From contig CAZBGY010000003.1 of assembly GCA_964491605.1 (NCBI GenBank), positions 24,678 to 88,677 of the forward strand: 64,000 nt of DNA, given 5' to 3'. Positions 3,917 through 33,641 of this stretch are shown in pieces; position 1 is the stretch's first letter, and each line of letters opens with the position of its first letter. A model generated the notes under the pieces. The model was given only the letters and a program-made list of their open reading frames with translations, ran no database searches and was not told where the DNA came from. The position numbers and the translations under genes were made by a program. The stretch comes from an uncultured Candidatus Bathyarchaeia archaeon (GTDB lineage: Archaea; Thermoproteota; CALKCG01; B24; DRYS01).

Positions 3917-4834
3917 CTACACGTATATATCGACCTGTATATCTCTAGCTAAGTTAGCATATCTATTCCTCACCGTTACCTCAGTAACGTTAGCAGCTTC
4001 AGCTACTTCCCTTTGAGTTTTCCTACATCCGCTTATAATCGAAGCCATATAGAGAGCCGCAGCGGCTATACCCGTAGGATTCTTCCCGTTAGTTATCTTG
4101 AGTGTTCTAGCGACTTCCACTATCCGGTATGCTATAAGCTCAGCTGAAGCTGGAAGCTGTAGAGGTTTAGCTATATGCTTAACATAGCTATGAGGGGGTA
4201 TAGGTGTAACTGTTATCGTGAGATCCTTTATAAGCGAACGGTAGCTCCTACCTATCTCCTTCTTATCCATCATGGATATCCTCGATAATTCATCTAGAGT
4301 TCTCGCATGCTTACATAGATGGCATGCGAGGTATACGGCGGCTGCAGCCATACTCTTTATAGATCTACCCTTAACCTTATTATTCTCTAAAGCTTTACGG
4401 TATACTACCGATGCAGTCTCCAGGACGGGTTTAGGTAGATTCAACGCCGATACTATCTCCATTATAGTTCTAAGAGCTAAAGCTAGGTTCCTATCCCTAG
4501 CACTCGATAGACGACTACGACTCTGCAATCTTCTAAGATTCATAAACTGGCTTAGCTTACCGATAGATAGACCACTTCTAGGCTTGATATCTATAATCGT
4601 GGATAGACCTTTATCGTGGACGGCATACGTTATAGGAGCACCTACACGTGTACGTCTCTCCCTCTGCTCATCGTCGAATGCACGCCATTCAGGACCTAGA
4701 TCCATAAGCTTATCATCGATCACAGAGCCACATGCACTACAGACGATCTCGGCTCTATCGTAGTCATATATCATGTTACGAGATTTACAGTGCGGACAGA
4801 TAATCTCTACATCATCTTTATTTTCATTCGACAT
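3917..4834 (-). CDS. tfb: Transcription initiation factor IIB (TFB)
   Basis: N-terminal zinc ribbon CPHC...CSAC followed by two cyclin-like repeats; 305 aa. Confidence 0.9.
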   Translation of the reverse strand: MSNENKDDVEIICPHCKSRNMIYDYDRAEIVCSACGSVIDDKLMDLGPEWRAFDDEQRERRTRVGAPITYAVHDKGLSTIIDIKPRSGLSIGKLSQFMNLRRLQSRSRLSSARDRNLALALRTIMEIVSALNLPKPVLETASVVYRKALENNKVKGRSIKSMAAAAVYLACHLCKHARTLDELSRISMMDKKEIGRSYRSLIKDLTITVTPIPPHSYVKHIAKPLQLPASAELIAYRIVEVARTLKITNGKNPTGIAAAALYMASIISGCRKTQREVAEAANVTEVTVRNRYANLARDIQVDIYV

Positions 4835-20887: not shown

Positions 20888-21646
20888 CTATACGTGGAGC
20901 GGAGGTATATCATACTCTTGAGCTTTCCTCATCCTAGCAAGCTCAGCTTCAGTCCTCTTCATTAGATCCCTAGCAGCTAGCCTTATCTCCTCACCCTTCT
21001 CCCTAAGCTCGGCTAGATCTATCTCCAACCCGACAAGCCTACCGAGCTCCTCTAAGACCGAAGCCGCGGCATCTGGATCCGGATAGTTGAAGAAGCTTTG
21101 AGCTAGAAGCCCCACAGCTGTTAACCCGTATAACGGTGCAAGCCTCATCATCGATGCATACGGCCCGACTAAGTAGCCTCTATCAAGTATCTCCATACCC
21201 ATAGCTTTAAGATCCTCTAAAACCTCTCTATTCGAAGCTGTAACATAGACTTTAGGCTTATCAAGCTTATACCTCTCCTCAACAGGTATACCGCCTAGGG
21301 TTACTAGGAGTTTAGCTTTCTTCCTAGAAACCCATTCGACTACAGCTCTACATATCTTAGGTACGGCTGAAGCTGGGATAGCGATCTCTGATACGAGCGC
21401 AACTAGCCTCCCGGAACGTAGTATCCTAAATGGGGGTTTAGGTACACCTCCATGGAGGACTACAACCGGTGGTAGTAGATCCGATTCTATGAAGCCAACC
21501 TCCTCCATATCGGTCTTAGAAGCTAGATGGAATACAGCTATCAAACCCACTAAACCTACATCAGGTAGCCCCGCGATTACTATAGGTTCCTCACCTATCT
21601 CCTTAACCTCTACTATAGAAACCTCTCCGTCGGACATACTAGCCAC
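20888..21646 (-). CDS. PAC2-family (proteasome assembly chaperone-like) protein
   Basis: About 250 aa with GLPDVGLVG near the N-terminus, typical of archaeal COG1938/PAC2 proteins. Weak call. Confidence 0.4.
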   Translation of the reverse strand: MASMSDGEVSIVEVKEIGEEPIVIAGLPDVGLVGLIAVFHLASKTDMEEVGFIESDLLPPVVVLHGGVPKPPFRILRSGRLVALVSEIAIPASAVPKICRAVVEWVSRKKAKLLVTLGGIPVEERYKLDKPKVYVTASNREVLEDLKAMGMEILDRGYLVGPYASMMRLAPLYGLTAVGLLAQSFFNYPDPDAAASVLEELGRLVGLEIDLAELREKGEEIRLAARDLMKRTEAELARMRKAQEYDIPPLHV

Positions 21647-22236: not shown

Positions 22237-22324
22237 GCGGGGGTAGCCAAGCTAGGTCTAAGGCGCGGGACTGAGGCTCCCGTGGGGTAGCCCTTCGTGG
22301 GTTCAAATCCCACCCCCCGCACCA
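22237..22324 (+). tRNA. tRNA-Leu (anticodon GAG), encoded CCA
   Basis: Acceptor GCGGGGG/CCCCCGC; anticodon stem CGGGA/UCCCG with loop CUGAGGC; long variable arm; T-arm GUGGG-UUCAAAU-CCCAC; 3' ACCA. Confidence 0.8.
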
Positions 22325-23743: not shown

Positions 23744-24380
23744 GAAGGAAAGCATTAAAAATTCATCCTATATTTTTATCCAAAGAAAAAGATACGGTTA
23801 TATATTATAGTTCTTCCTAAAATCATGGATATCGAAGAGGCGACTATTAGATTGAAAGACCGTCTTATTTATTTGTGTCGATAATAGTTTTAGAAGGCAG
23901 ATTGCTGAAGCATACTTCAATAAATTTATCCATGAGAACTGGAGGCTCATTAGTGCTGGTTTAATACAGCTGAAGATGCCCACCCAAATACTCTCAGGCT
24001 TATATGATGGATTCTCTTCGAAAATTTTCTTTTTAAGAAATAATGCTATTTAGTGAAAGTGGTTTGGCGTTTGAGGATTAGGTCAGATATTTTACAATTT
24101 TTACATGAGTTAACTAAGCATGCTGAGAAGATATTTGAGATAAAGAATGATGCAAATTTAGAAGATTTAATTGAAATAATTGCGTCCAGGTATAGTAATA
24201 AGGAGTATCAATATCTATATACTAGTGAAGATTAAAGAATTGTTGAGCCATCAATTCGTTTTCTAATTAATAGAAGGAATTCAAATATGCTTCAAGGATT
24301 AAAGACTAAGCTTAGGAATAGCGATAATACCGCTTATGGGTGGTGAATAATCAGCACGATTTATCTCTGAATCTTATATG

Positions 24381-26315
24381 TTACCTAATGAGAAGTGTCA
24401 GAATCCTGAATGCAATCCCACCTAAAATTATTGCGAATACTATCTCGAACACTGTTATTAAAAGTGCATTTTTCCATCCAACTTCCTTAATTAATGCTGC
24501 GATAGTCGATATGCATGGTATATAGAACATCGTTACTATCGTGAATACAACCATCTGAGTAGGTGTTAAGATGCTGGAGAAATCCGTCGTTTCAAGTAGA
24601 GTTGAGAGCATTATCAACGTTAATTCCTTTCTTAGTATGCCGAAAATCAATGTTATACCTGTAGTAGCTGGTAATCCCAGCCATGTGACGATTATCGGAC
24701 TAAGCATCGTTGAAATAATCTCTGATAAACCTAAAACCTCCATCGATTTAATGATGAAGCTTCCGGCGATTATGAGAGGGAATGCTATCTTGATGAACTC
24801 GATTAGCCTAAATAATGTTTGCTTGAGAACAGTTTTTAGATGCGGAATCCTATAGGTAGGCATTTCCATAATTAAAGCCGTAGGCTCACCTGGAAGAGCT
24901 TTAAAGGCTAATCTTCCGAGTAAGAGTATAATTATGAGGTTGAAAACGTATAGTGCTAGAGCCCACTCCATCCCTAGAAATCGACCGACAAGGCCGAGGA
25001 TTATAACTGTTCGTGCAGCACAGGGGATGAGGGTTGTTACGAAGACCGCGAGAAGTCTCTCCCTCTCAGTCTCCATTATTCTGCAACCTAAGCATGCTGG
25101 AACATTACATCCATAGCCAAGCATTATCGGTATAAAGGCTTTTCCATGCAACCCCATTTTATGCATTAAGCTATCCATTAGGAATGCGATTCGACACAGA
25201 TATCCTGAATCCTCTAGCATGTATAGTATTACGTAGAATGGAGCTATATATGGAAGAACTATGGTGACGCCAGCGATAAGTCCCTCCATAATACTCCATA
25301 CTAATGAGCCCACTACTCCGACCCCGAAAATCCCACTAATAAAGGGCTCTAAACCGTAAAATATACCGTTTAGTAGTTCTGAGATATATCCTCCAAAAAT
25401 GAAGACGGTATAGAATATGGAGAGAAGTGTAAGGATCATTATTGGATAACCTAAAATCTTATGAGTTGTTAGATCGTGAAGTATCTCCTCGATCGACGGC
25501 TTTAAAGGAGGCGTAATCCTCTGAACTTCTCTAACGATACAGGTAACCTTCTCATATCTTTCGGAAGTCATCACCGATGGGCAGGGATGCCCATGGATTT
25601 TCTCGATCTCAACAGCAAGATTCCTAGCAAAAGAAACTATCTGAGGATTTATCTTCGATATTTCTTCCACAATTTCCTTATCTTCTTCGAGTAGTTTAAT
25701 CACTGTGTAGCGTATTGGATAATGATAATTTATTTGTTTAATCATTTCTGCAAGTTTAGCTATTCTCTCCTCGATCTCCTTACCATACTTTATCTTAACA
25801 CATCTTTTCTGCCCCTTTTCAGCGACTTCTATAATCTTGTCTAAAAGTTGGGTAAGACCTACACCCTTTATTGCAATCGTAGGTACGACAGGAATTCCTA
25901 AAAGCTCTTCCAGTTTTCCCACATCGATAGATATACCCTTCTTTCTCGCAATATCCATCTGATTTAACGCTATAACCATTGGAGATTCAAGTTCCATCAA
26001 TTGTAATGTGAAGAATAAGTTTCGTTCAAGAGCCGAAGCATCGATTACATTCACTACGACATCAGGTTTCTCAATCGCGATATATCTTCGTGAAATAAGC
26101 TCCTCCAAGGAATACGTCGATAATGAGTATATTCCAGGCAAATCGATTATATCGATAACATAACCCTTATAGTAGAGTGTTCCTTCAGCTTTCTCGACAG
26201 TTTTACCCGGCCAATTACCGATATGTTGATGTAATCCAGTAAGCTGATTAAATATAACGGATTTTCCAACATTCGCATTCCCAGCTAAAGCTACTGTTAT
26301 CTTTCTCTTAGACAT
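24381..26315 (-). CDS. feoB: Ferrous iron transport protein B
   Basis: N-terminal G-domain ([15 protein letters not shown]), followed by large polytopic membrane domains; 644 aa. Confidence 0.9.
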
Positions 26316-26595
26316 CCCTTTTCACCACAAAAACCTTCTCAGCTAAGCCTCGACCTAAGGCTAGCCTAGTACCTCTCACTAAAATTTCCAATGGACCATG
26401 GAATGGAGCTGCTTTCACAACTAAAACTTCTGTTCCCGGAGTAAGACCCATATCCATTAACCGCTTCTCAGCCCCCCATCTAGCCCCATATCCCCTTCCA
26501 TAGCCTCCTCTAATCGACGACACGATCCCAGCTTCACCTTCCCTTAACCAGGTTAACGGTACCTCCTGCCCGCTAGATATTTTTCGCTGTTCCAT
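26308..26595 (-). CDS. feoA: FeoA-family protein
   Basis: Small SH3-like protein; overlaps the feoB start by 8 nt. Confidence 0.65.
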   Translation of the reverse strand: MEQRKISSGQEVPLTWLREGEAGIVSSIRGGYGRGYGARWGAEKRLMDMGLTPGTEVLVVKAAPFHGPLEILVRGTRLALGRGLAEKVFVVKRDV

Positions 26596-27256
26596 ATAGC
26601 CCCCTCACCCTAATAGAGGATGCCATAGAGATGCTGAGCACATGACTTCTATCCCCCACTTTAACAAGAATCAACTCATCAGAAATTTTCCTCAGAACTT
26701 CTATCGTAGCTCCAGGCACTATCCCTGCTTTAGCAAAATACTCTAATACATTGTATTCCTCTTCAGTTAGCTTAACTATTACAGTGCTTTCACCAGGCTT
26801 TAAGTCGGTTAACGGCTGACTCTCCTCCTCAAATACTCCTCCACAGTCGGTGGGTATAGGATTTCCATGTGGACAAGTTTGAGGATGCCCCAAAGCTTTT
26901 TCGATCTTCTTTATTATATCTCGTGGGAAAACATGTTCCAATTTACAAGCAATATCATGGACTCTTTCCCACTCAACATGGAAAATATCGGTTAAAAGCC
27001 GTTCGCAAAGCCTATGTCTCCTAATCACTTGTAAGGCTATCTTTCTACCTTCCTCAGTTAATCTTACACCTCTATAAGGCTCATGGACTATATAGCCCTT
27101 CCTTTCAAGTCGCTTAAGGGTATTAGTAACCGATCCGGGAACAACTTTTAAAAGTCTAACTAAATCTTTAGTTCGTGCTCTACCTACCTTCTCCTGCAAC
27201 CTATAGATAATCTCAAGATATTCCTCCGTAGTCTCGGTAAGAGCGTGCTCCTCCAT
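26573..27256 (-). CDS. DtxR/MntR-family iron (metal)-dependent transcriptional repressor with C-terminal FeoA/SH3-like domain
   Basis: wHTH N-domain, dimerisation/metal-binding domain, C-terminal SH3-like domain; first gene of the dtxR-feoA-feoB run. Confidence 0.8.
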   Translation of the reverse strand: MEEHALTETTEEYLEIIYRLQEKVGRARTKDLVRLLKVVPGSVTNTLKRLERKGYIVHEPYRGVRLTEEGRKIALQVIRRHRLCERLLTDIFHVEWERVHDIACKLEHVFPRDIIKKIEKALGHPQTCPHGNPIPTDCGGVFEEESQPLTDLKPGESTVIVKLTEEEYNVLEYFAKAGIVPGATIEVLRKISDELILVKVGDRSHVLSISMASSIRVRGLYGTAKNI

Positions 27257-27292: not shown

Positions 27293-27657
27293 TAAACTTT
27301 ATCTCGTCGAAAACAAAACCTCAACTATACGCTCTTTGAATAAATCTCTACGATTCTCTTGAAGCTTCCCGGTATAGATGCTAGCATGGAAAGATCTACT
27401 GAGACCTTAAAATATATTGGAATCAATATATCTGCCGGTATACTAAAGTTTACAAGGAGGCATGGAGTAATAGCTATCTGCGAGAAAATGAAAATTTACT
27501 ATTCATCGATGGTTCCTTTGACGATAACTCCATAATATATCCTCAAACAGAAAGCAGGATTCAAATAGAGGTGGGGGTCGCATCAAATCTGTGGTATTCA
27601 AAAATTACTTCTTCCATATTACCTTTACCCTCATGCCCTTTTTCCTTAACTATTATA

Positions 27658-28224
27658 CTATAGCATGTAAAGATTACCGACGCTTCCATAAACAAATGAA
27701 TCCAGCATAGCTTTATGCATCGTGAAGATTGCATGCCGACCAGTGCAATGTGATGGGACGATAATCTTCGGACTTATTTTTCTCAGCTCTTCTACGGTTT
27801 GGTTGATACGCTTCTCGAATTCCCTACCTCCTAGATGGAAGCCGCCTAAAACGGCGTAAACCGTCTCTATACCTGTAAGATGTTGTGCATAGCTGATCGT
27901 ATTTATTATACCAGCATGACTGCATCCAGATAGGATAATTAGCCCCTTACGCTTAACATCGATTACTAACGCTCTTTCATCCCATATCCATGGATCTGGC
28001 TCCCACCTACCATTAATGAAAGCTCTATGTTGTGGATAGCCCTTCTCGAAGGAGGTTTTCCGCGGAATCTCACCGGTAACCAATGCTGAGCTATCGGCTA
28101 TGAGGAGTGGTTTGCTCACCTCGATATACCCAGCTGGTTTAATCCTATCTTCAGATGGAAAGCTTGTAGCGATAGTTAAGCAGAATGCGAAGATGTTAGT
28201 TGAAAGGGAGAATATCGATATCAT
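27658..28224 (-). pseudogene. Remnant (C-terminal half only) of an MBL-fold metallo-hydrolase (COG1237-like)
   Basis: The C-terminal half carries ILSGCSHAGIIN...GGFHL...PSHCTG, but the N-terminal HxHxDH half is absent. Upstream sequence is occupied by opposite-strand fragments. Confidence 0.4.
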
Positions 28225-28606
28225 ACTAATCGATGGCCCTCCATGGATAGGCTGTCCGGCAATATCCTCTGTTGTAGATGTGGATATAGGTCTAATAGTT
28301 ACTGAGCCTACAGTATCAGGTTTTCACGATCTGAAAAGAGTACTACTCTTACTGTAACATTTCGATACCCCATCCTTAATATGTATAAACATGTATGATA
28401 TAAATTATGATAATATCGTAGAATTCTGCAGAGAAAATGATATAGAGGTTATTGGTAGAATCCCCTTTAACCCGAAGGTTATCGAGGCGATGATTAATAG
28501 GAAAACTATCATAGAGTATTCTCCAGAAAGCGATGTTGCAAAGGAGATAGAGAGAATATGGGGGGAATACTTAATTATAATCATATTATTATATTGTCTA
28601 ATTTAA
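28040..28606 (+). pseudogene. Fragment of a MinD/CooC-superfamily ATPase (COG1149-like), with internal TAA and missing N-terminus
   Basis: ORFs 28100..28357 (ILIDGPPWIGCPAISS...VTEPTVSGFHDLKR) and 28391..28606 (VIGRIPFNPKVIEAM) are in one frame, separated by a single TAA. No Walker A or ferredoxin region lies upstream. Confidence 0.5.
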
Positions 28607-28633
28607 TTATTATGTTATCTAAGAGGGTGGTGG

Positions 28634-29576
28634 ATGACTTCACCAGTATTCGGGCCAGTTCCCTCAAGGCGTTTAGGAAGAAGTCTAGGGATAAACAATA
28701 TCCCGTATAAGACGTGTACGTATTCATGCGTATACTGTCAGCTAGGAAGGACAACTCATATGCTTATTAGAAGGCGAAGATTCTATAAACCAAAGGAGAT
28801 TTTAACTGAGGTTGAAAGGAAGGTTGAAGAATTACGCTTAAAAGGTGAGCGGATAGATTATTTAACCTTCGTCCCTGGCGGTGAGCCAACTTTAGATGCT
28901 AACCTCGGAAGGGAGATTCTACTTCTAAAGCGGATAGGTATTCCGATAGCTATTATAACTAACGCTTCTCTACTCTGGAAGCATGATGTTAGAGAGAGCT
29001 TACTTGAAGTCGATCTTATTTCATTAAAGATCGATGCAGTTAGTCAAAACTTATGGAAGAAGGTGAATAGGCCGCATAAGAACTTGCAGTTAAATGACAT
29101 TTTACACGGCATAAAAGAGTTTACTAAAATATTTGATGGAACAATAATAAGTGAAACGATGCTTATTGATGGCATAAACTATGGTGAAGAACTTAAGCGG
29201 ATAGTAGACTATCTTGGGAAGCTAGATAAATTAGATGCGGCTTATATAGCGGTGCCGACAAGACCGCCAGCGGAGGGATGGGTTAAACCAGCTAGAGGGG
29301 GTCTTAAACGAAGCTTTCCAAGCATTTTCAAAGGAGCTTGGAGGTGAGAGAATAAAATTTTTAGTGAAGCATGAAGAGGATACCTTCGCTTTTACTAGGG
29401 GGATCGAGGATGAGATAGTTAGCATAGCGGCTGTGCATCCGATACGGAAAGACTATTTAACGAAGTTTTTAAACAGCATTGGAGTGGATACGTGCATCAT
29501 AGAAAAGCTTATTCAAGAAGGAAAACTAGTAAAACTTAGATACGGCGGAGACGAGTTTTATAGGAGCCGTTTCTAG
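28634..29576 (+). CDS. Radical SAM protein (COG0731-like); reading frame shifts at a G5 run (29296-29300)
   Basis: CxxxCxxC (CTYSCVYC) and GGEPTL motifs. Removing one G from the G5 run fuses ORF 28634..29347 seamlessly to 29364..29576 (…GWVKPARGVLNEAFQAFSKELGGERIKFLVKHEED…). Confidence 0.55.
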
Positions 29577-30490
29577 AATATACTGTACAATGGATGATTT
29601 TTAACTAGCGGCTTTATACCTAGGCTTCTTGCATGATACGCTATTATCGCATCGATTACCGCGCATATAGGAAAGATATGTTTCGCTTTCGCGATTGAGC
29701 CGTAAACGATGAAATTTGCCCCCATCGCCTGAGCGAGGGATAGTACTCCACCTCTACATGCTATCTTCGCATCCTTCTCTAGGCCTTTATTTTTACACCA
29801 TTTCCCCACAACACCTATCGGCGCTGTCCCAGTGGGTAAACCGAACTTTTCTTTAGCTATGTAGACACCGTAAACTGCAAAACCTATATTTGGAACATCC
29901 AAAACTGGCGTGAAGATTAAGGGTTTCTCTATCCCAGCCCTTAAAGCTCTCATAATTAACCCCTCTTTTTCTAGGGTTCCCTCAAGGATCTGGATCATTC
30001 CATCTGGATACGGATTTCTAGGGTTAAAAGCTTGAACGATAGCCGCCTTCAACCCGGTTCCTTTAATTGCTTTAATTTCCTCCTCGTTCAGCGTATAATT
30101 TATCGAGTTGTAAACCGCTTTATCCTGGAGACCAACCTCTCTCACGTAATTCGCTGCTTCAACCCTAACGGAGGCGTTAGGCCCATTTATTAAGAAGGGA
30201 CTGTTAGTAATGCTTGCTACAAATTCGATGTATTTTATTAGTGCCTTGGAAGTTTCTCCGACAACATCGAGCATGCATGGAACACCAGTTTTATTAGACA
30301 TTTCCTCTTGAATATTTATCAATCTTTCAGCTTCGATTTTATCGAAAATCCCTAAATATCTATCCTTAACTATTTTTTGCCTCTCATGAAATATACTTCC
30401 AATCAGTACAGTAGGCAATTCTCCTAGCTGCCCACTTATCCTTACTCCTCCAATATCGAAAATTTCCTGTCTCCTCCCAAACTTAAATAA
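29573..30490 (-). CDS. MtrH-like methyltransferase (tetrahydromethanopterin S-methyltransferase subunit H family homologue)
   Basis: From memory of MtrH sequences, the start of MtrH resembles the 24 codons immediately upstream of the first canonical start (TTG at 30418), which read LFKFGRRQEIFDIGGVRISGQLGE. At the homologous initiator position this gene has TTA. Confidence 0.6.
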   Translation of the reverse strand, partial: LFKFGRRQEIFDIGGVRISGQLGELPTVLIGSIFHERQKIVKDRYLGIFDKIEAERLINIQEEMSNKTGVPCMLDVVGETSKALIKYIEFVASITNSPFLINGPNASVRVEAANYVREVGLQDKAVYNSINYTLNEEEIKAIKGTGLKAAIVQAFNPRNPYPDGMIQILEGTLEKEGLIMRALRAGIEKPLIFTPVLDVPNIGFAVYGVYIAKEKFGLPTGTAPIGVVGKWCKNKGLEKDAKIACRGGVLSLAQAMGANFIVYGSIAKAKHIFPICAVIDAIIAYHARSLGIKPLVKNHPLYSIF

Positions 30491-30561
30491 AGTATTCCAC
30501 CGTACAGCTTCAACTAAACGTTGATCAAAACTACTATTTAGCAGTTTACTACTCCACTATA

Positions 30562-30921
30562 TTACTTCTCAAGAATTGCTAGATTTTCCTTAATAACATC
30601 TGCAACTTTGGTATTAGGCTTTACCGGGATAACCCTTACATTATGATAGTTAAGTAGCTCTGAAGCTTCCAGTCCTAGTTCCGCCGCTAATACTACATTC
30701 ACATTAAGATCTACCAAGGTTTTTACCACGATTGGTCCTGATCCATGCTTATATGATGATGCAGGATTATCGAGGATATATACGCTTATAATCGTACCAT
30801 CTTCGATATCGATGATGGTGAATGTCCTGGCTCTACCGAATACTTCTGAGACAACATCATCTAGACCTGCATGAGCTTTTGTTGGAACGGCTACTCTTAC
30901 CTTTCCCATATCGATCAGCAT
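30562..30921 (-). CDS. Dinitrogenase FeMo-cofactor-binding (NifX/NifB C-terminal-like) domain protein
   Basis: 119 aa; KVAVPT...FGRARTFTIIDIEDG...GSG...VNVVLAAELG pattern of the Nitro_FeMo-Co domain. Confidence 0.65.
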   Translation of the reverse strand: MLIDMGKVRVAVPTKAHAGLDDVVSEVFGRARTFTIIDIEDGTIISVYILDNPASSYKHGSGPIVVKTLVDLNVNVVLAAELGLEASELLNYHNVRVIPVKPNTKVADVIKENLAILEK

Positions 30922-30956
30922 CCAGATACCCGGGGAAAATAGAGGGGGTGAATGTT

Positions 30957-31136
30957 TTACCTAGGAGGCCCTCTACCTCTTCCACACCTCCCCCCTGGAG
31001 GTCCTTTATTTATTCTATGAATCATTATCGATGGTGCACCGCATCTTGGGCAAATTCGCGGTTTTGGTATACCTTGAGGGACCTCTATCATGTATCCGCA
31101 ACTACTACATTGGAAAAGCTTAACTGGTAAGCTCAT
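30957..31136 (-). CDS. Small zinc-ribbon protein with Gly/Arg/Pro-rich C-terminal tail
   Basis: 59 aa ORF, below the 60 aa cutoff of the ORF track: MSLPVKLFQCSSCGYMIEVPQGIPKPRICPRCGAPSIMIHRINKGPPGGRCGRGRGPPR. Two CxxC pairs; ATG at 31136, TAA at 30957-30959. Confidence 0.4.
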   Translation of the reverse strand: MSLPVKLFQCSSCGYMIEVPQGIPKPRICPRCGAPSIMIHRINKGPPGGRCGRGRGPPR

Positions 31137-31156
31137 ACTCTTATATCCCCTGAAAG

Positions 31157-31393
31157 CTATCTAAAGCCCCTCTCAAGCATATCCTTTAACTCCTTTATTC
31201 TCGTCTCAACCTCTCTTATCTCCTCTTCGATATCTGCCTTCTCTTCCTCAAGATGCTTCTTGTAATCTTCTAGCGCCTTCAATTCATCCTCTGGAGATAT
31301 AAAGGGATATCGTGGTAGATACATATATGGATATGGCGGTGGATAGATCCACCATCGCCAGAATCTCTGCCTTCCAAACCACACCATCCTCAT
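31157..31393 (-). CDS. DUF5320-like small protein (Trp/Tyr/Pro/Arg-rich N-terminus plus acidic coiled-coil C-terminus)
   Basis: The N-terminus is WFGRQRFWRWWIYPPPYPYMYLPRYPF. It is followed by SPEDELKALEDYKKHLEEEKADIEEEIREVETRIKELKDMLERG. This architecture matches DUF5320 as remembered. Confidence 0.4.
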   Translation of the reverse strand: MRMVWFGRQRFWRWWIYPPPYPYMYLPRYPFISPEDELKALEDYKKHLEEEKADIEEEIREVETRIKELKDMLERGFR

Positions 31394-31407
31394 TCACCCC
31401 TCATAGT

Positions 31408-31662
31408 TTAATACCAGTATGGCGGATAAATTATTGGGGGAAGACAATATGGGAGACCGTACCCATAGTAGTATGGGTATACCCACCACCATCTTGGAAG
31501 CCATGGAAATCTAGCACAAACCCATGGATTATATGGGTAGCCCCAAAGCCATCTACCGAAGCCGAAAAGCCATCCAGGCCTCTGCCATGGTGGCAAGTAG
31601 CTAAACGGCCCTCTCCCAGGCCAAGGCCCAATCCAACCAATATCTCTCCAACCCCAAGCCAT
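31408..31662 (-). CDS. Extremely Trp/Tyr/Pro/Gly-rich small ORF (84 aa; about 19% W, 14% Y)
   Basis: MAWGWRDIGWIGPWPGRGPFSYLPPWQRPGWLFGFGRW...WWWVYPYYYGYGLPY. The frame was chosen because it continues the composition of the next gene's N-terminus. The DNA here is CCATGG/CCA-rich, so all three reading frames stay open. Confidence 0.3.
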   Translation of the reverse strand: MAWGWRDIGWIGPWPGRGPFSYLPPWQRPGWLFGFGRWLWGYPYNPWVCARFPWLPRWWWVYPYYYGYGLPYCLPPIIYPPYWY

Positions 31663-33641
31663 TTGGGATCACCAAATATTGTGCATATGCACACAAATAT
31701 ATAAATCTTTCGTTAATATAGTTCATCTAGAGGATACCAAACATGTTGCGAAGATTGTATGATATCATAGATTTGAATATAGGAGAAGAGGTAAGTTACC
31801 AAAGTCTGTAGGGTTGACGACTTCGCAGACTTAACTAATGCTACACTCGAACTGCCGAGTCACTTAGATCCTATATTCCTAGAGATTGCGAGCTTGAAGT
31901 TTTCAGATCTGTCGGTTTTGAGAGATACTAGATTCGTCTCTAGAGTTAGCTTAACAACATTTCCATCTTCCTAGTTTATAACCTTAAGATGATGTGCTAG
32001 GTTGGATGGAACTCGGATGTATTAATCCTAGTTACCAGTAAACTTTGAAGCTTCTCTAACCGATAAAAGAGCCCCTTATCGGTTTCTTCTCCCCTATATC
32101 AGATATCACTTAAACTGCAAACTTAGATTTTGTAAAGTTCATAATTACTGGGAAAAGATCAATCATACTTTCAGTCGTTCGGTGTTATTATCATGATGAA
32201 TGTATGATTTGTACCATCACTTCTACCTTCATACTAGCTTAGATATACGCTATTCAATCCTTCATTAGATGCTATTTCGCATAGCTTTCTATCCGCTGCT
32301 AGAAATCATATAGCGTTTACATTTTTAGCTTAAGCTATTTGTAGTGCGTCAGCTTAATACACATGACATTTCTCGAGTATGATCTATGCCTATTTCAACG
32401 TTATACTCTTTACATGAAGTAGTATAAGCGAACGAAGCCTAGCCAACCTTATGGTCTCAAGTATAAATCTTCTCGTAGCGATGTAATCCTCTTCGATTAT
32501 CTTCTTAATGCTTTTCGCCCTATCTAATACGTCTAAAACCTCGCCGATATTCCATATATTAAACGATAGCTTCAACTCGCCTCCATATGCTTTCCTATAT
32601 AATTCCCTTACAAACTCTATGCCAGGGCTCCTCAATATACCTCTTTACGACGGCACTACTATCGAGATAGACTATCTGATCTACCTATCCATCATCCTTT
32701 TAACCAGCATACTCATAAGATCCTCCTTCGGTATTACAGGTTCGAAATCTAACTCATAGGTTTTTCGAGTTGGCGAGCTCATTTAAACCCTTCTCTACAT
32801 AATCCATAAGCTCCCCTATAAACGAACTAGTTTCTAAATCTTTCTCCCACAGCATAACTTTTAAACATCCTTCAAAGCTTTTTCATCCACATATATACTA
32901 CTCTTCCTTCTAGATATATAGACACCAACAGATATATACCGAAAACATTTTTAGACATTTCTACCTAAAGCATTTACTAGAAAACATCTATTGAATAGTC
33001 CAAGATATGGTGTATGCTATCTGAACATTAGATCTTAAGATTCAATTAAGTTATGAAGGGAGTTAAATATCTAAAATGCTATCGATAAAATCATCGATGA
33101 AACTATGATTAAAACATAGATTTCAATAAATCTTAATCTAAGCTCTTTACTACGTTCTAAAACTTTTTCATAGACATACAGCATTATTATGAGTAGTTTT
33201 GATATATTCTTCACTATTCCTCCTTCCGGATAGAAAAATACTACATAGTAACTGATAATTATTCGTTAACACTTAAAAATCTACTTAGGATAATGAATGT
33301 TTGAAGCTGGCTAGAGAGATCATATAATAAAAATTTAAGTTACAGCCTCCTAATCTAATCTCCGCTAAACCTTATCTAGCAGTCTATTTAGAGTTAGTAG
33401 AAGATCTAGTACACTCTAGAAGTATCCTTGACGAAAAGCTGATGATACGTAGACCTGAGGATTGACGCCACCTAAACTCTCGATACAACTATGCTGCTTC
33501 TATATAGCTTAACTCGCAAGTTATTTTAGGAAACCTAGAAAATGTTAACCTTCTTCTAACTAGTAGTTAATGGGATGGTTATAGATGTCATCTACGATAT
33601 ACGTTAAGATTAAATGGTTGAATGCGTGATCAGAGAATGTT

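Follow-up and report, generated by a model that had tools for sequence, protein, structure and literature searches.

A probable microhomology-mediated deletion beheads two divergent genes at an ORP-like operon in a Bathyarchaeia genome

The window, i.e., the whole 64-kb stretch of Bathyarchaeia DNA that was analysed, contains the remnants of two genes that lie on opposite strands. The remnant on the minus strand (27658-28166) consists of codons ~150-317 and the stop codon (27658-27660) of a COG1237-type MBL-fold gene, and is contained in an ORF of 188 aa (27658-28224). Comparison of this ORF by phmmer with the full-length, 317-aa MBL-fold proteins of Bathyarchaeia gave a match to P0001 with 96% identity (E = 6.6e-104) that is confined to residues 150-317 of 317; tblastn placed the match at 28164-27661, and the DNA homology to the contigs of two relatives, L001 and L008, stops at 28166. 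The N-terminal 149 codons are deleted, and among them is the metal-binding motif HGHYDH (residues 103-108 of P0001), so that the HxHxDH signature has no counterpart in the remnant. The C-terminal segments SGCSHAG, GGFHL, and HCTG are kept, and Pfam found no domain in the remnant, Lactamase_B and Lactamase_B_2 included. Searched against the GTDB species representatives, P0001 has only relatives of at most 68% identity, and the source species is without a representative there.

The plus strand carries, at 28157-28606, codons ~141-289 of a gene for a MinD-type P-loop ATPase with a 2x[4Fe-4S] insert (COG1149, Orp3/Orp4-like). This remnant shows up as a pair of same-frame ORFs, one of 85 aa (28100-28357) and one of 71 aa (28391-28606), separated by a TAA codon and a short stretch without a start codon. 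When the pieces were joined and compared by phmmer with MinD/Fer4 ATPases of 286-292 aa, they matched P0121 (289 aa), which is encoded by L008, a 195-kb JGI contig, with 82% identity (E = 7.4e-73). The match begins at about residue 141 and includes the C-terminal MinD/NifH-like homology. The deviant Walker A motif of P0121 (GKGGTGKT, residue 8) is gone from the remnant, and neither of its two CxxCxxC ([4Fe-4S]) motifs, at residues 68 and 94, is found in the window. Pfam gave no match for the 85-aa piece and only weak, subthreshold matches to Fer4_NifH and ParA for the 71-aa piece; the recognition of both the MBL remnant and the 85-aa piece thus required phmmer against full-length relatives.

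The MinD remnant has accumulated further lesions. The nonsense codon TAA (28355-28357) stands in place of AAA (Lys208) of the intact orthologue and is common to all four assemblies of this lineage, which are described below. In the DGPPG motif, the codon TGG (28244-28246) specifies Trp in place of the Gly (GGG) of L008 and P0121, a radical substitution affecting a motif conserved elsewhere, and the same change occurs in two of the other assemblies, L006 and L007. Compared with L008, the remnant also has an in-frame 9-bp deletion after position 28414 and a divergent C-terminal tail. L006 has an additional Cys-to-Tyr replacement (28254) in the GCP motif, and L007 is missing a 33-bp AT-rich segment (28573-28605) from the remnant's tail, ahead of the radical-SAM gene, an indel polymorphism among carriers of the deletion. 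Read-through or recoding of the TAA codon was considered and rejected: no archaeal case of TAA recoding is known, and the N-terminal half is absent regardless. An earlier note, made from the sequence alone, had described the minus strand as encoding only the C-terminal half of a COG1237-type MBL-fold protein and the plus strand as encoding a MinD-like ATPase that is N-terminally truncated, devoid of Walker A and ferredoxin parts, and interrupted by a single in-frame TAA; the matches to P0001 (residues 150-317) and P0121 (from about residue 141) and the lesion at Lys208 bear out this description.

On the MBL side, the scar is flanked by minus-strand genes for FeoB (24381-26315), FeoA (26308-26595), and a DtxR-like iron-dependent repressor (26573-27256), all intact and collinear with all relatives. 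On the MinD side follows a radical-SAM gene on the plus strand (28634-29576), a probable pseudogene, as a 2-bp deletion at 29297/29298 leaves an ORF of 237 aa and an out-of-frame C-terminal part, compared with the single, intact ORF of 314 aa in L008. The frameshift is seen in the DNA alignment, in three-frame translations, and in two tblastn HSPs that lie in different frames. The possibility that it marks a conserved natural split or recoding site was rejected, given that the window has a -2 and another lineage (L027) a -1 frameshift, ~40 nt apart, and that L008 and L023 have single ORFs. Next is an apparently intact gene for an MtrH-family methyltransferase on the minus strand (29573-30490), with 305 codons, no internal stop, and a dN/dS of 0.10 versus L008. 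It is followed on the same strand by a NifX-like gene (30562-30921), a zinc-ribbon/MJ0401-like gene (30957-31136), a DUF5320-like gene (31157-31393) with a weak match under the Pfam cutoff, and a Trp/Pro/Tyr-rich ORF of 84 aa (31408-31662), all retained and collinear with L008; the first three are intact.

Some variation in the surroundings was also recorded. The intergenic region that separates the DtxR-like gene from the MBL 3' end is ~275 bp longer in L008 (4276-4564) than in the window (27537-27550), and in L008 it includes a called ORF of 35 aa. Between the small-gene cluster and an Amidohydro_2 gene lies a variable island of ~1.5 kb (31932-33451) with a low GC content (0.35-0.36), which is nearly without long ORFs; the largest, of 81 aa (32390-32635, minus strand), has no Pfam match. 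At this position L001 has ~0.5 kb and L008 ~0.2-0.3 kb of unrelated sequence, and L022, another assembly of the lineage, shares the island at least to 32736. The Rfam and tRNA scans found nothing inside the scar; the sole Rfam/ARAGORN match in the 64-kb window is a tRNA-Leu (GAG) at 22237-22324, between the genes for a HycI-like protease and a superoxide dismutase.

The origin of the two remnants is made clear by L008, in which the operon is intact and whose flanks are 87-89% identical in nucleotide sequence to the window and collinear on both sides. Window 27550-28166 corresponds to L008 4564-5166, and window 28156-31932 to L008 8423-12231, so that ~3.26 kb of L008 (5166-8423) has no counterpart in the window. 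The gene order in L008 is, on the minus strand, FeoB, FeoA, the DtxR-like repressor, the MBL-fold protein (317 aa), and an AsnC/Lrp regulator (189 aa); then, on the plus strand, an Mrp/NBP35-type NTPase (290 aa), two NifX-like proteins (131 and 123 aa), MinD-Fer4 (289 aa), and the radical-SAM enzyme (314 aa); and then, again on the minus strand, MtrH (305 aa), a NifX-like protein (119 aa), and small genes. The sequence without a counterpart comprises MBL residues 1-149, MinD residues 1 to ~140, and four whole genes, i.e., those for the AsnC/Lrp regulator, the MrpORP-like P-loop NTPase, and two NifX-like proteins. The divergent intergenic region, which presumably holds both promoters, is lost as well. 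As expected of deletion pseudogenes, the homology is partial with respect to syntenic full-length genes (both genes in L008 and the MBL gene in L001), the 5' ends are lost, and a stop codon and a frameshift are present.

At the joint (28156-28166), where the blastn HSPs overlap, lies an 11-nt microhomology, TGGAAAGCTTG. In a three-way alignment, the same 11 nt are found without mismatch in two intact genes, the MBL gene of the closest relative, L001 (on the reverse strand), and the MinD gene of L008; the left-hand (MBL) copy is exact in L001 and 9/11 in L008, so that the parental arrangement, reconstructed from two different relatives, would have had one copy at each breakpoint. Because the chance of an 11-nt identity at a random joint is, by our estimate, ~4^-11, the deletion was most likely microhomology-mediated.

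Alignment with intact orthologues from relatives, which the earlier note had proposed as a check, revises its picture of the locus in some respects and strengthens it in others. The alignment uncovered one deletion of ~3.26 kb rather than two truncations, and the possibility that the missing N-terminal parts are encoded elsewhere was not borne out within the 64-kb window: tblastn with all L008 proteins found no second copy of the lost genes and half-genes there, and the sole related match was a distant MinD/ParA paralogue (23% identity) at ~14.6-15.4 kb. Both remnants are indeed incomplete, as had been claimed, but this does not follow from their overlap. The mechanically called ORFs overlap by 125 bp (28100-28224), and the homologous parts share just the 11-nt junction; in the rest of the overlap, each ORF merely runs on by chance along the strand antisense to the other remnant. 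Nor do the genes face each other. They are divergent, not convergent, their 5' halves have been removed, and the deleted 5' ends abut. The view of the region as a decay scar beside a NifX/DUF5320 cluster is sound, with the specification that the scar is that of a deletion and that the neighboring radical-SAM gene is broken too.

The junction is not peculiar to one assembly. Together with the TAA codon, it is present in L006 (JGI sample 3300038924, 99.7% identity to the window), in L007 (JGI sample 3300038925, 98.8% identity and the extra 33-bp indel), and in L022 (the Logan assembly of SRR5468562, 99.95% identity), which also has the radical-SAM frameshift. Judged by their sequences, L006 and L007 are strains distinct from that of the window, and L022, being nearly identical, may come from the same population. 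The junction was recovered through exact-protein look-ups; an exact search with 40 nt across it gave no match in genome_contigs and none in metagenome_contigs. In L006, at 4336-4342, window position 24188 (downstream of FeoB) is joined in inverted orientation to window position 21268 (in the middle of a PAC2 gene). Either ~2.9 kb is truly inverted here or the contig is chimeric; a search for inverted repeats at the ends of this rearrangement gave nothing convincing.

On this evidence, the best reading of the locus, with a probability of about 0.93, is that a single microhomology-mediated deletion took ~3.26 kb out of this Bathyarchaeia genome and left the scar. Replication slippage or illegitimate recombination between the two copies of TGGAAAGCTTG, one in the MBL and one in the MinD gene, would have removed the intervening DNA and thereby set MBL codon ~150 (minus strand) back-to-back with MinD codon ~141 (plus strand). 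Transcription of the remnants would presumably have been lost at the same time. Later, the MinD remnant would have gained the AAA-to-TAA and Gly-to-Trp changes and small indels, and the radical-SAM gene, cut off from the upstream region of the operon and from its partner genes, would then have gained its 2-bp frameshift deletion. The remnants are considered dead because their 5' ends and start codons, the shared intergenic region with the presumed promoters, and the catalytic motifs are gone. What remains is an ordinary pair of deletion pseudogenes within a lineage-wide erosion of an ORP-like operon.

Three other explanations were weighed against the deletion. The first is a relocation, by inversion or transposition, of the N-terminal halves and the four genes to another place in the genome, where they might still be partly functional. 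Such an event is conceivable as the visible part of the genome is 64 kb, beyond which relocated or paralogous copies could lie, and as L006 is rearranged ~4 kb away, so that events of this kind do occur in the lineage. However, both flanks are collinear with L008 and in the same orientation, which is the signature of a simple deletion, and the AsnC gene, the MrpORP-like gene, both NifX-like genes, and the N-terminal halves are untraceable in the window by tblastn. Furthermore, a database of 5.8 billion proteins, in which the lineage is sampled, holds no full-length MinD-Fer4 protein with more than 82% identity. The half-genes would be non-functional wherever their other parts are located, and relocation is very unlikely.

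A second explanation, which is even harder to sustain, is that the remnants are functional truncated or new genes, i.e., that the C-terminal MBL piece is a protein of 153-188 aa (JGI calls a 153-aa version, P0002) or that the C-terminal MinD piece stands alone. In favor of this, the ORFs do have start codons (an ATG at 28224, a GTG in P0002) and are annotated by gene callers, and the dN/dS of the MBL remnant versus its relatives is still low, 0.20-0.25, compared with 0.24 for the C-terminal half of the intact gene in L001; the value for the MinD remnant is 0.29, versus 0.10-0.24 for intact neighbors, all from small counts. Selection is thus not clearly relaxed, and the ratios give no independent proof of non-function, though they are consistent with a recent deletion: because the deletion would be young, most of the measured divergence would be older than the deletion itself, which accounts for the low values. 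Against function, the MBL remnant is without HxHxDH, and half of an MBL fold, which is an alpha-beta/beta-alpha sandwich, is unlikely to fold. The MinD remnant is without the P-loop and the Fe-S motifs and has a nonsense codon and a Trp in DGPPG, to which the strain in L006 adds the Cys-to-Tyr change in GCP.

The third, that a chimeric or collapsed assembly joined half-genes of a genome in which the block is intact, is scarcely credible, even if the source is apparently metagenome-derived and the exact junction search came back empty, as three further assemblies, made from other samples or runs by different pipelines, have the same junction and TAA, two of them differing from the window by SNPs and indels, as the TAA and the Gly-to-Trp change are common to all assemblies, as for a real, older event, and as an 11-nt repeat, being shorter than the k-mers that assemblers typically use, is unlikely to cause a collapse.

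The deletion reading is also supported by what has become of the operon in related lineages. Besides L008, a more distant relative (L023 and L025) has it intact and enlarged by a NifU and a further MinD-Fer4, still divergent from AsnC-MBL. In a sister lineage (L001-L005), which is 95.6% identical in nucleotide sequence over 8 kb of flank, the MBL gene is intact, and the sequence corresponding to L008 6189-10345 (4.16 kb) is lost at an 8-bp microhomology. This loss fused codons 1 to ~138 of MtrH in frame to about codon 3 of AsnC/Lrp (L001 7019-7983, also in L002-L005), and the AsnC part of the fusion has two later frameshifts. The deletion in the window (L008 5166-8423) and that in L001 overlap and are not nested, and must therefore have arisen independently from an intact ancestor.

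Four further lineages show other states. In L011 (MBL 64% identical), MinD residues 1-74 adjoin radical-SAM residues 144-269. In L026 (MBL 70% identical), the Mrp-type NTPase and one NifX are all that is left. L027 (GCA_038864205.1) lacks the Mrp-type NTPase and one NifX, has MinD in three frames, and carries the -1 frameshift in the radical-SAM gene already mentioned. In L028 (GCA_038882715.1), a fragment of NifX abuts a radical-SAM gene that is itself heavily degraded. The eight lineages examined show at least six different lesions, with the flanking genes kept; several of the compared loci are MAG or metagenome contigs, in which single-base frameshifts could be sequencing errors and differences in gene content cannot. 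Fragments of an IS240-family transposase and of a Cas12f1/TnpB-like gene lie a few kb from the MBL gene in L026 (9993-10472 and 13054-13377), and mobile elements may contribute to the instability of the neighborhood in some lineages.

A broader reading, that the scar is one case of a repeated, independent loss of the ORP-like operon across a Bathyarchaeia clade, is somewhat less probable than its opposite. If it is true, these archaea would be able to do without the operon under some conditions, or selection would even act against it, and the lineages would form a natural-knockout series for learning what ORP-type systems do. That some Bathyarchaeia have the operon intact and others have it broken, in at least six ways, suggests an anaerobe-associated metallocluster system that is readily lost, and the co-loss or retention of its conserved partners, i.e., the AsnC/Lrp regulator, the MBL-fold protein, and the radical-SAM enzyme, could guide functional work. 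A practical consequence is that the MBL ORFs of 153-188 aa, the MinD ORFs of 85 and 71 aa, and the radical-SAM ORF of 237 aa should be flagged as pieces of pseudogenes. Such pieces are unfit for protein counts or metabolic reconstruction, an example being the methanopterin-synthase label that JGI has put on the 153-aa fragment.

Compared with known COG1237-type MBL-fold proteins, the remnant in the window matches the last 168 residues of a 317-aa member with 96% identity, and residues 1-149 are gone. The JGI label for this type, 7,8-dihydropterin-6-yl-methyl-4-(beta-D-ribofuranosyl)aminobenzene 5'-phosphate synthase, is automatic and putative; the nearest solved structures, 2p4z and 3h3e (TM1679), are distant relatives, the best E value in the PDB being 7e-26. 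With other prokaryotic pseudogenes that arose by microhomology-mediated deletion, the locus shares a short direct repeat (11 nt) at both parental breakpoints, of which one copy is left at the joint, and a clean loss (3.26 kb) that was followed by nonsense, frameshift, and radical substitution changes. It differs from them in that the deletion spanned a presumed divergent promoter region, so that two opposite genes were beheaded at once.

The ORP complex of Desulfovibrio vulgaris Hildenborough contains Orp3 and Orp4 (MinD-like, with two [4Fe-4S]), Orp5 and Orp8 (NifX-like), and Orp9/MrpORP. Its genes form divergent operons beside a regulator, and the functions proposed for it are Fe-S delivery and cell division (PMC6345978, PMC8359166). 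The block in L008 likewise has an Mrp/NBP35 NTPase, two NifX-like proteins, and a MinD-like protein with two 4Fe-4S motifs, and is divergent from a transcription regulator. The best NCBIfam match of its Mrp-type NTPase is MrpORP (NF041136), with a score of 352 bits and a match that covers model positions 2-250 of 365; the two NifX-like (Nitro_FeMo-Co) proteins of the block match the C-terminal domain of this model. The NTPase score falls short of the 450-bit cutoff because NifX is encoded separately here and not as a fused domain. Indeed, in contrast to the ORP cluster, the NifX domains of L008 are encoded by separate genes and are unfused to the MrpORP-like NTPase, the regulator is of the AsnC/Lrp type and not the sigma54 activator OrpR, and the block is found in an archaeal host and has a radical-SAM enzyme, an MBL-fold protein, and MtrH as extra partners. 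In the window itself, just the C-terminal half of MinD and one distal NifX-like gene are kept, short of the co-location that marks an ORP cluster. The sequence comparison thus points to a resemblance of the L008 block to ORP in composition rather than to established membership, and its setting beside DtxR-FeoAB, a superoxide dismutase gene, and a ferritin-like gene would fit a role in metal or Fe-S metabolism.
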